The notes: a model not told the origin generated them from the sequence alone. Shown: positions 43,485-44,456, counted from the stretch's first letter. The stretch: 64,000 bases of DNA from an uncultured delta proteobacterium (GCA_963778115.1 CAVZSV010000007.1:151175-215174), one strand, 5' to 3'. Numbers and translations are program-made.

Positions 43485-44456
43485 ATGCTAAACAACATCC
43501 CCTCAAGGAGGATTACGTTAGTAATGGATTGTTTTAGAACACTATTTTTGATGTCAGCCATTCTTTCAACCAGTGCTGTAGCACTACCTGCCGCTCCCTC
43601 CGAAGTTCAGATGCGAGATCTGCGACGACTCCTCGATCAAGGCTGTGCCGGAGAGATCAAAGTTCGAGCTGAAGTAGATCCCGTTCTCGTTCGGGCCGAC
43701 TATCAGTTTTTCACGGATCATACGACCGAGTTTTCCGTAGTCGAACATTTCCATCGTCGGATCATGAACCAACGTCTGGCGATTCGGCCATCGCTTAGAA
43801 TTCTTGATTTCGCCTGTGGTGACGGGAAATTTCTTGCTTCTCTGCTCACCGAAACCATTCCCATTTCCCAAAGACGTTTCGTTCATTTGCTGGATACTGA
43901 CCCTTTCTACCTGGCTAATGCGGCAAATTTGCTGCAGCCGTTTTCTTCAAGACCCATTCGGGGATGGCAGTATTTGCCTCCCGGGATTCCTTTTGATCTC
44001 ATTATCGCAAAACATGGTCTCAGCCACCTAGCTTCCTTCGAAGAAACTTGGGATAAGCTACTTTCGAGACTGGCTCCTCGTGGGATTGTCATGGTTACTT
44101 TGGCCTCCTCGAAGAATGGACTCAATCAGATGGCGGAAGCCCGACTTCATAAGATTCGCGAAATTCGAGACGTGGAGAACGAGTTGCCGGATCTCCCCTT
44201 GAAAAGGCTTACGGTATCCGATCTGCTGCCTTTGATTCCCGAAGGTTTCGGAAAAATCGAAGTCGTCCCCTTGCGATCCGATTTACGATTTATCGACACT
44301 TTGGAAAATCGTCGCCGGATCAATCGACTAAATTTCGGAGCTCGGTATTCGGATTATTGGGAACGAGAGCTAGACGCTTTGTTCGATCGATTCAAAGACG
44401 GTGATTTCATCGTGGTACCTCTTTACGACGAGGTATTAGTCGTTGAACGTCTCTAG
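43485..44456 (+). CDS. class I SAM-dependent methyltransferase-like protein with signal-peptide-like N-terminus
   Basis: ORF track; motif I ILDFACGDGKF, acidic post-I VHLLDTD, motif II FDLIIAKHG; hydrophobic N-terminal segment LFLMSAILSTSAVA. Confidence 0.6.
   Translation: MLNNIPSRRITLVMDCFRTLFLMSAILSTSAVALPAAPSEVQMRDLRRLLDQGCAGEIKVRAEVDPVLVRADYQFFTDHTTEFSVVEHFHRRIMNQRLAIRPSLRILDFACGDGKFLASLLTETIPISQRRFVHLLDTDPFYLANAANLLQPFSSRPIRGWQYLPPGIPFDLIIAKHGLSHLASFEETWDKLLSRLAPRGIVMVTLASSKNGLNQMAEARLHKIREIRDVENELPDLPLKRLTVSDLLPLIPEGFGKIEVVPLRSDLRFIDTLENRRRINRLNFGARYSDYWERELDALFDRFKDGDFIVVPLYDEVLVVERL

Follow-up and report, generated by a model that had tools for sequence, protein, structure and literature searches.

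Animal histamine N-methyltransferase (HNMT) works in the cytosol and has no signal peptide, and its donor S-adenosylmethionine (SAM) is likewise cytoplasmic. To our knowledge, SAM chemistry is regarded as strictly cytoplasmic in bacteria, the exceptions being injected effectors that methylate host chromatin or DNA. Secreted methyltransferases that use the SAM of the target cell have been described, including Rv1988 and Rv2966c of Mycobacterium tuberculosis, NUE of Chlamydia, RomA of Legionella and Mhy1-3 of Mycoplasma, and these provide an answer to the objection that SAM is confined to the cytoplasm (PMC10117894). The known members of this group methylate histones or DNA (SET-domain, DNMT or Erm-like enzymes); several are delivered by type III or type IV secretion systems, and none is HNMT-like or acts on a small molecule. 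A 'putative exported protein' of Bordetella parapertussis (3OCJ) has the class I methyltransferase fold but is a general fold relative only and is not HNMT-like. Here we analyze a gene for a predicted HNMT-like methyltransferase with a signal-type N-terminus, located in a 64,000-nucleotide (nt) stretch of DNA from an uncultured delta proteobacterium (GCA_963778115.1 CAVZSV010000007.1:151175-215174; the whole stretch is termed the window, and positions are counted from its first letter). An open reading frame (ORF) of 323 amino acids (aa) was present just where the original prediction had placed it, at 43485-44456 of the plus strand; its product is termed the query below.

The query was found to carry all three motifs on which the methyltransferase assignment had been based, namely motif I (ILDFACGDGKF), post-I (VHLLDTD) and motif II (FDLIIAKHG, residues 170-178, nt 43992-44018). 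Residues ~97-216 matched the Pfam models Methyltransf_23 (35.1 bits; cutoff, 27) and Methyltransf_12 (33.5 bits; cutoff, 30) above their cutoffs, while NCBIfam returned weak generic methyltransferase matches only. The domain model of the query was confidently folded and displayed the seven-stranded Rossmann-like fold of this class, whereas a single-sequence AlphaFold2 model (predicted local distance difference test score, pLDDT, of 35) was not usable. As read from these matches, the protein is a class I SAM-methyltransferase by fold and family. The motif of the substrate helix, DYQFFTDHTTE, holds E82, a position that is equivalent to HNMT Glu28 and is Glu in 99% of the family described next.

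An exhaustive HMMER scan of 1.84 billion representative proteins detected 172 family members at E<=1e-3, of which 69 reached E<=1e-10. The query aligned with the family from end to end at 21-39% identity, with all motifs of the family consensus recognizable (DYxFFxxHSTE ... LDFGCGxG ... LVEP ... FDLILANHVLYYV ... ENRxxILRFLxG). By a word-indexed search of 5.8 billion proteins the query retrieved only itself, and a 10-sequence family profile used in the same search added nothing relevant beyond the query itself or one irrelevant member. When family profiles built from 51 or 126 sequences were compared to the PDB, human HNMT ranked first (E 3e-18 to 6e-18), followed by NodS (1e-10). The profile and HNMT were aligned at F..HSTE with FLNHSTEH, LDFGCGdG with SIGGGAGE, LvEp with VVEPS, and anHvlYYV with MIQMLYYV. 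HNMT was thus the closest relative in sequence and structure across the whole chain, substrate lid included, and the closest fold and sequence relatives were all small-molecule methyltransferases (HNMT, TmtA, JHAMT and NodS). The distance is considerable: identity between the query and human HNMT (1JQD, 1JQE and 2AOU) is only ~15%, the C-terminal lids differ, and the query has a predicted signal that HNMT lacks. By these alignments, the family is a sparsely populated bacterial counterpart of animal HNMT that has no name. No family name or specific NCBIfam model was found in the sources checked, nor was a paper found that describes the family or characterizes a bacterial member in a literature search on bacterial HNMT homologues.

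A typical family member is 250-265 aa in length and its residue ~10 aligns with query residue ~69; the query is therefore ~55 residues longer at its N-terminus. Approximately 94% of the family members are ~257 aa, have no N-terminal extension or signal, and appear to be cytoplasmic. Two true family members were identified by a scan of genome contigs, both in metagenome-assembled genomes of Alphaproteobacteria and both without a signal, and a metagenome scan revealed cytoplasmic forms only. A separate sub-group (P0059, P0064 and P0132, also P0088 and P0145) has non-hydrophobic N-terminal extensions of 50-120 residues, those of P0059, P0064 and P0132 measuring 50-80 residues. Given the bulk of the family and the cytoplasmic location of SAM, the query could be an ordinary cytoplasmic methyltransferase that either starts at an in-frame Met downstream of the hydrophobic segment (M43, 43611) or is held by an uncleaved tether with its domain on the cytoplasmic face. 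We consider this explanation unlikely on the evidence of the start codons, the hydrophobic segment and the homologues, as follows.

Four in-frame start codons were compared. No Shine-Dalgarno motif precedes M1 (43485), M23 (43551, which lies within the hydrophobic core) or M43, as opposed to M14 (43524), which is preceded by a full AGGAGG that was unique to this codon among 31 starts compared. Coding potential was assessed by a codon-frame log-odds score trained on 19 genes of the window, for which held-out in-frame segments scored 6.0 ± 3.5. By this measure, the stretch between M14 and M43 (43524-43610) scored 3.96 in the frame of the ORF, a value reached by 0.3% of out-of-frame segments, and the stretch between M1 and M14 (43485-43523) gave no coding signal. 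M14 is the likely start, from which a precursor of 310 aa would be made. The N-terminus quoted in the original prediction (MDCFRTLFLMSAILSTSAVALPAAP) corresponds to residues 14-38 and so begins at this second in-frame ATG and not at 43485. Scans for promoters and terminators gave nothing beyond shuffled expectation.

The segment that follows M14 has the n-, h- and c-regions of a Sec-type signal peptide. Its hydrophobic core is an uncharged, Ser/Thr-rich run of 16 residues (TLFLMSAILSTSAVAL), after which the predicted cleavage site AVA|LPAAP provides small residues at -3 and -1 and a Pro at +2, not +1. The membrane-insertion energy of the best 19-mer was estimated, crudely, at +2.5 kcal/mol, using scale values that are reportedly those of Hessa et al. 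2005. The same estimate gave +0.9 to +3.2 kcal/mol for the evidently cleavable signals of neighbouring genes, -1.8 to +1.8 kcal/mol for most clear transmembrane helices of the window, and +6.9 kcal/mol for cytoplasmic PyrG. A short core with this energy, which resembles that of the neighbouring signals and not of the helices, would make a poor stable transmembrane helix and, together with the AVA|L end, disfavours an anchor that faces the cytoplasm. The segment is more than a chance hydrophobic run, since equivalents precede the domain in homologues and since 43524-43610 scores as coding; most probably, it represents a genuine Sec signal that can be cleaved. Other export signals were considered and set aside. 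A twin-arginine translocation (Tat)-like SRRITLV is present solely in the form started at M1, with an Asp and an Arg intervening before the core, and among the homologues an RR pair was found in P0003 only. A lipoprotein signal is disfavoured by the absence of a lipobox at the end of the core, the first Cys past the core being C54, 20 residues beyond the predicted cut. Cys54 (43644-43646) was conserved in 7 of 8 signal-bearing homologues in the alignment, including P0002, P0003, P0005, P0021, P0104 and P0114. No partner Cys is conserved along with it and it does not lie in a lipobox, and the cytoplasmic homologues start just after it.

Inspection of the N-termini in all 149 retrieved family matches revealed hydrophobic signal-type extensions in P0002 (39% identity to the query), P0005, P0021, P0104, P0114 and P0119. 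In P0003 (33% identity), moving the start to an upstream in-frame ATG produced a textbook signal, MPYGLYRRQIGWGFVVMLMTSLAYSA|ELN, and a similar correction for P0119 placed MKR ahead of the core. The signal-type segment is present in the five closest homologues and two more distant ones, and is lacking in ~118 other members; the query and ~7 other representatives thus differ from the remainder of the family by an added signal peptide and linker. The signals of the seven homologues (21-39% identity) were unrelated in sequence and yet retained the property, with plausible -3/-1 sites. This pattern is that expected of real signal peptides and argues that the signal is not an artefact of start-codon choice. 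In P0003, P0005 and P0021 the stretch from signal to domain contains no Met, so the signal could not be bypassed by an internal start. Taken with the coding frame of 43524-43610 and the lack of a Shine-Dalgarno motif at M43, this disfavours the internal start that had been named as one way for the original prediction to fail. The n-regions of the homologues carry a charge of +1 to +2, and this favours an N-in, C-out orientation. Neighbour joining of 127 full-length members placed the query (P0001), P0002, P0003, P0005, P0021 and P0114 in one clade, with P0104 nearby and P0119 elsewhere. The contigs of the clade have a G+C content of 48-53%, like the window (~49%), and those of P0104 and P0119 are at 37-40%. 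A genuine signal is very probably shared across the clade, and the claim that a signal-like N-terminus precedes the methyltransferase fold is upheld by the n/h/c layout, the coding frame and the equivalent segments of the homologues. What appears to be new here is this putatively exported branch of an uncharacterized HNMT-like family.

With a confidence only slightly better than even, we favour the reading that an HNMT-like SAM-methyltransferase is made from ATG 43524 with a cleavable Sec signal, is exported, and works where foreign SAM is available. The precursor would cross the inner membrane by use of its Sec signal and be cut after AVA33, leaving a mature protein of ~290 aa in the periplasm or beyond. 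From an otherwise cytoplasmic ~257-aa family, a small clade would have gained a signal peptide and a Cys-containing linker of ~30 residues. The enzyme may still be SAM-dependent, with a small-molecule acceptor that, as for HNMT, is probably a nucleophile of the amine or imidazole type; this would not be the usual substrate of the family, because the Tyr-Tyr pair of the pocket is replaced. A site with foreign SAM is invoked because no SAM supply to the bacterial periplasm is known. The enzyme could meet this SAM within or close to a cell that has been lysed or invaded; alternatively, where a bacterium is surrounded by the cytosol of another cell, SAM (~400 Da) could pass through porins and reach the enzyme in the periplasm.

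A number of observations weigh against this reading. At the N-terminus, the 12-nt spacing between AGGAGG and M14 is long compared to the usual 6-9 nt of the window, in which about half of the genes have a Shine-Dalgarno-like core, mostly at that distance. The hydrophobic peak was the weakest among the 24 signal-like N-termini of the window (Kyte-Doolittle 10-mer mean of 2.01). The n-region read from M14, MDCFR (1 Arg and 1 Asp), is almost without net positive charge (read from M1 it would have 3 Arg and 1 Asp), and the 15 residues past the core are slightly more positive; an N-in orientation is therefore not strongly dictated by the query itself. The weak peak and this charge distribution would suit the cytoplasmic explanation. 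P0010, which is nested in the signal clade, has no signal, its ORF being open for just 11 codons upstream of its start.

Further points against the favoured reading concern the query as an enzyme. By column statistics over 126 family sequences, it was found to be the most divergent member of the family. The first glycine of motif I, Gly in 100% of the remaining 125 sequences, is A110 in the query; S180 and H181 replace residues that are Tyr in 99% and 96% of the rest and are equivalent to HNMT Tyr146/Tyr147, which we take to line the histamine (amine) pocket; and K240, L282 and P66 stand in place of Pro (98%), Phe (98%) and Phe (92%), respectively. K176 also departs from the Asn found in 88% of the rest, and P0002 is intermediate, with K176 and H180. 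The substrate pocket of the query thus appears clearly remodelled, and its substrate, even its activity, is uncertain. With near-invariant residues lost, an altered or lost activity is a live alternative, and the query could be an exported pseudoenzyme or ligand-binding protein, periplasmic or secreted, that has kept the fold. For such a protein the problem of SAM supply does not arise. The second motif-I glycine (position 112) is A or S in other clade members, and the query alone had no match to the PDB at E<=1 by phmmer. The residues most closely tied to SAM binding (D108, G112, G114 and the acidic D137) are by contrast retained in the query, as are E82, H177, N275 and R276, and the model is confidently folded. 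Active enzymes of class I with Ala at the first position of motif I are known, as in the loops of UbiE and glycine N-methyltransferase, and Ala110 is for this reason no proof of inactivity. On balance we find this exported-pseudoenzyme explanation improbable, a degree less credible than a cytoplasmic location.

The supply of the donor and the surroundings of the gene also count against the favoured reading. We know of no extracytoplasmic source of SAM in bacteria, no SAM transporter gene was seen nearby in the family scans of the window, and no conserved gene neighbourhood was detected among clade members, whose contigs are mostly short (1.3-4 kb). A further explanation is a nucleomodulin-like effector that is delivered into a host or prey cell and methylates protein, DNA or RNA there. 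Secreted bacterial methyltransferases that act in host cells are documented (PMC10117894), and the window is rich in exported hydrolases, including two trypsin-like proteases and a PLD-family protein. The query nevertheless lacks the SET and DNA-methyltransferase domains of the known effectors and matched no SET, DNA- or RNA-methyltransferase or protein-arginine-methyltransferase model of Pfam or NCBIfam; its closest relatives act on small molecules, and neither a translocation system nor any secretion system beyond Sec was linked to the gene in the window. Delivery into a prey or host cell thus appears to find no support in the family or context of this gene, and we regard an effector of this type as very improbable.

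A broader proposal, which we advance tentatively and regard as doubtful, is that the signal-bearing proteins form a clade of Sec-exported HNMT-like small-molecule methyltransferases that are active outside the cytoplasm of the producer, with the donor coming from a host, prey or lysed neighbour, either once the enzyme has been released or through foreign SAM diffusing into the periplasm, and with a compound of the amine or imidazole type from that other cell as target. No relevant precedent was found in a literature search on periplasmic SAM-dependent methyltransferases and secreted methyltransferases of Bdellovibrio. If true, this would represent bacterial extracytoplasmic SAM-dependent methylation, and the Sec-signal clade would carry that idea over to metabolites. 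An active enzyme would need a source of SAM outside the producer, a concrete clue to the lifestyle of an uncultured lineage. If the protein is inactive or cytoplasmic, the finding would shrink to an ordinary divergent methyltransferase. The ~170 unnamed representatives of the bacterial HNMT counterpart are defined and open to biochemistry.

Features of the methyltransferase gene and its neighbours (nt positions in the window; residues numbered from M1).
Feature	Position	Strand	Remarks
Methyltransferase ORF, 323 codons + stop	43485..44456	+	Longest form, from M1; in-frame stop upstream at 43467
AGGAGG, Shine-Dalgarno-like, most probable ribosome-binding site	43506..43511	+	12 nt upstream of ATG 43524
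Predicted Sec-type signal peptide, residues 14-33	43524..43583	+	n MDCFR / h TLFLMSAILSTS / c AVA; predicted cut after A33
Linker, residues 34-71	43584..43697	+	Predicted helix at residues 40-53; Cys54; model pLDDT 50-75
Predicted HNMT-like class I SAM-methyltransferase domain, residues 72-323	43698..44453	+	DYQFFTDHTTE, Rossmann core, C-terminal lid with ENRRRINRLNFG
Motif I (SAM-binding glycine-rich loop), ILDFACGDGKF, residues 106-116	43800..43832	+	First Gly of the family is Ala110 in the query
Post-I motif, VHLLDTD, residues 133-139	43881..43901	+	Asp137 aligns with Glu of family 'VEP', HNMT Glu89
Motif II and substrate-pocket strand, FDLIIAKHGLSHLASF	43992..44039	+	Family consensus FDLILANHVLYYVxDL; Tyr-Tyr replaced by Ser180-His181
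Trypsin-family serine protease with signal peptide, co-directional upstream	40400..41701	+	
96-aa basic protein, co-directional	41712..42002	+	No signal, no family match
439-aa orphan with signal peptide, immediately upstream	42111..43430	+	54-93 nt gap
857-aa low-complexity protein with signal peptide, convergent	44479..47052	-	Stop 22 nt from methyltransferase stop

The methyltransferase gene closes a series of co-directional genes separated by 10, 108 and 54-93 nt, and it lies among genes for exported proteins, a context in line with the favoured reading. Its 439-aa neighbour had no homologue but itself by word-indexed search and by phmmer against the PDB. The convergent 857-aa protein has a high content of Pro, Ala, Lys and Glu, matches no family, and contains a module of ~70 residues twice (...RVTFKDAKGNEYTATGKYLEE...YDPKTNRF... 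and ...RVTFKDATGQKYTATPDYIDE...YDPDTGVF...). The neighbourhoods of cytoplasmic family members (L003, L004 and L015) gave no consistent functional clue. In the distant members P0104 and P0064, the methyltransferase gene is followed by a gene for a HATPase_c protein of 719-854 aa (8891-11050 of L016 and 8984-11548 of L018); in L016 they share 4 nt, and the divergent neighbour in L017 encodes a MASE1 histidine kinase. HATPase_c may recur as a partner in part of the family and is not present in the window.

Among the large ORFs of the window, 24 of 46 encode one N-terminal hydrophobic segment and no later transmembrane helix, a share of predicted exported proteins that appears unusually high. Besides the protease of the table, the exported set includes a second trypsin-family protease (2370-4055), a PLD-family protein (22648-23916) and an NHL/teneurin-repeat protein (9458-11590). 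Two signal-bearing orphans, at 4093-5451 (minus strand) and 61151-62413 (plus strand), gave weak caspase-type NF047832 matches (E 8e-5 and 2e-4) that are far under the cutoff. No tRNA or Rfam family was detected in the 64 kb, and none of 10 orphan ORFs matched a lineage-specific NCBIfam family. The genome is Gram-negative, as KdsB, an OmpA-family protein, LepB and a TolQ-like protein are encoded in the window. At 36444-38963 of the minus strand, pyrG (CTP synthase) is directly preceded by kdsB (CMP-KDO synthetase), a pairing that is known from Chlamydia trachomatis and that is too little for a phylum assignment. The window proteins looked up, including PyrG, KdsB and pyruvate kinase, were alone or nearly alone in their 90%-identity clusters; the lineage is poorly sampled. 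At 20496-22031 (plus strand), a flavin-monooxygenase-like protein (Pfam FMO-like, E 2e-33) follows a signal-like N-terminus (MIFRRFSITSSVPMRTLLLVFLSISLPLSPSESFSA), the longest form having a Tat-reminiscent RR-F, and its product would be a second apparently exported enzyme with cytoplasmic cofactors (flavin adenine dinucleotide, FAD, and NADPH).
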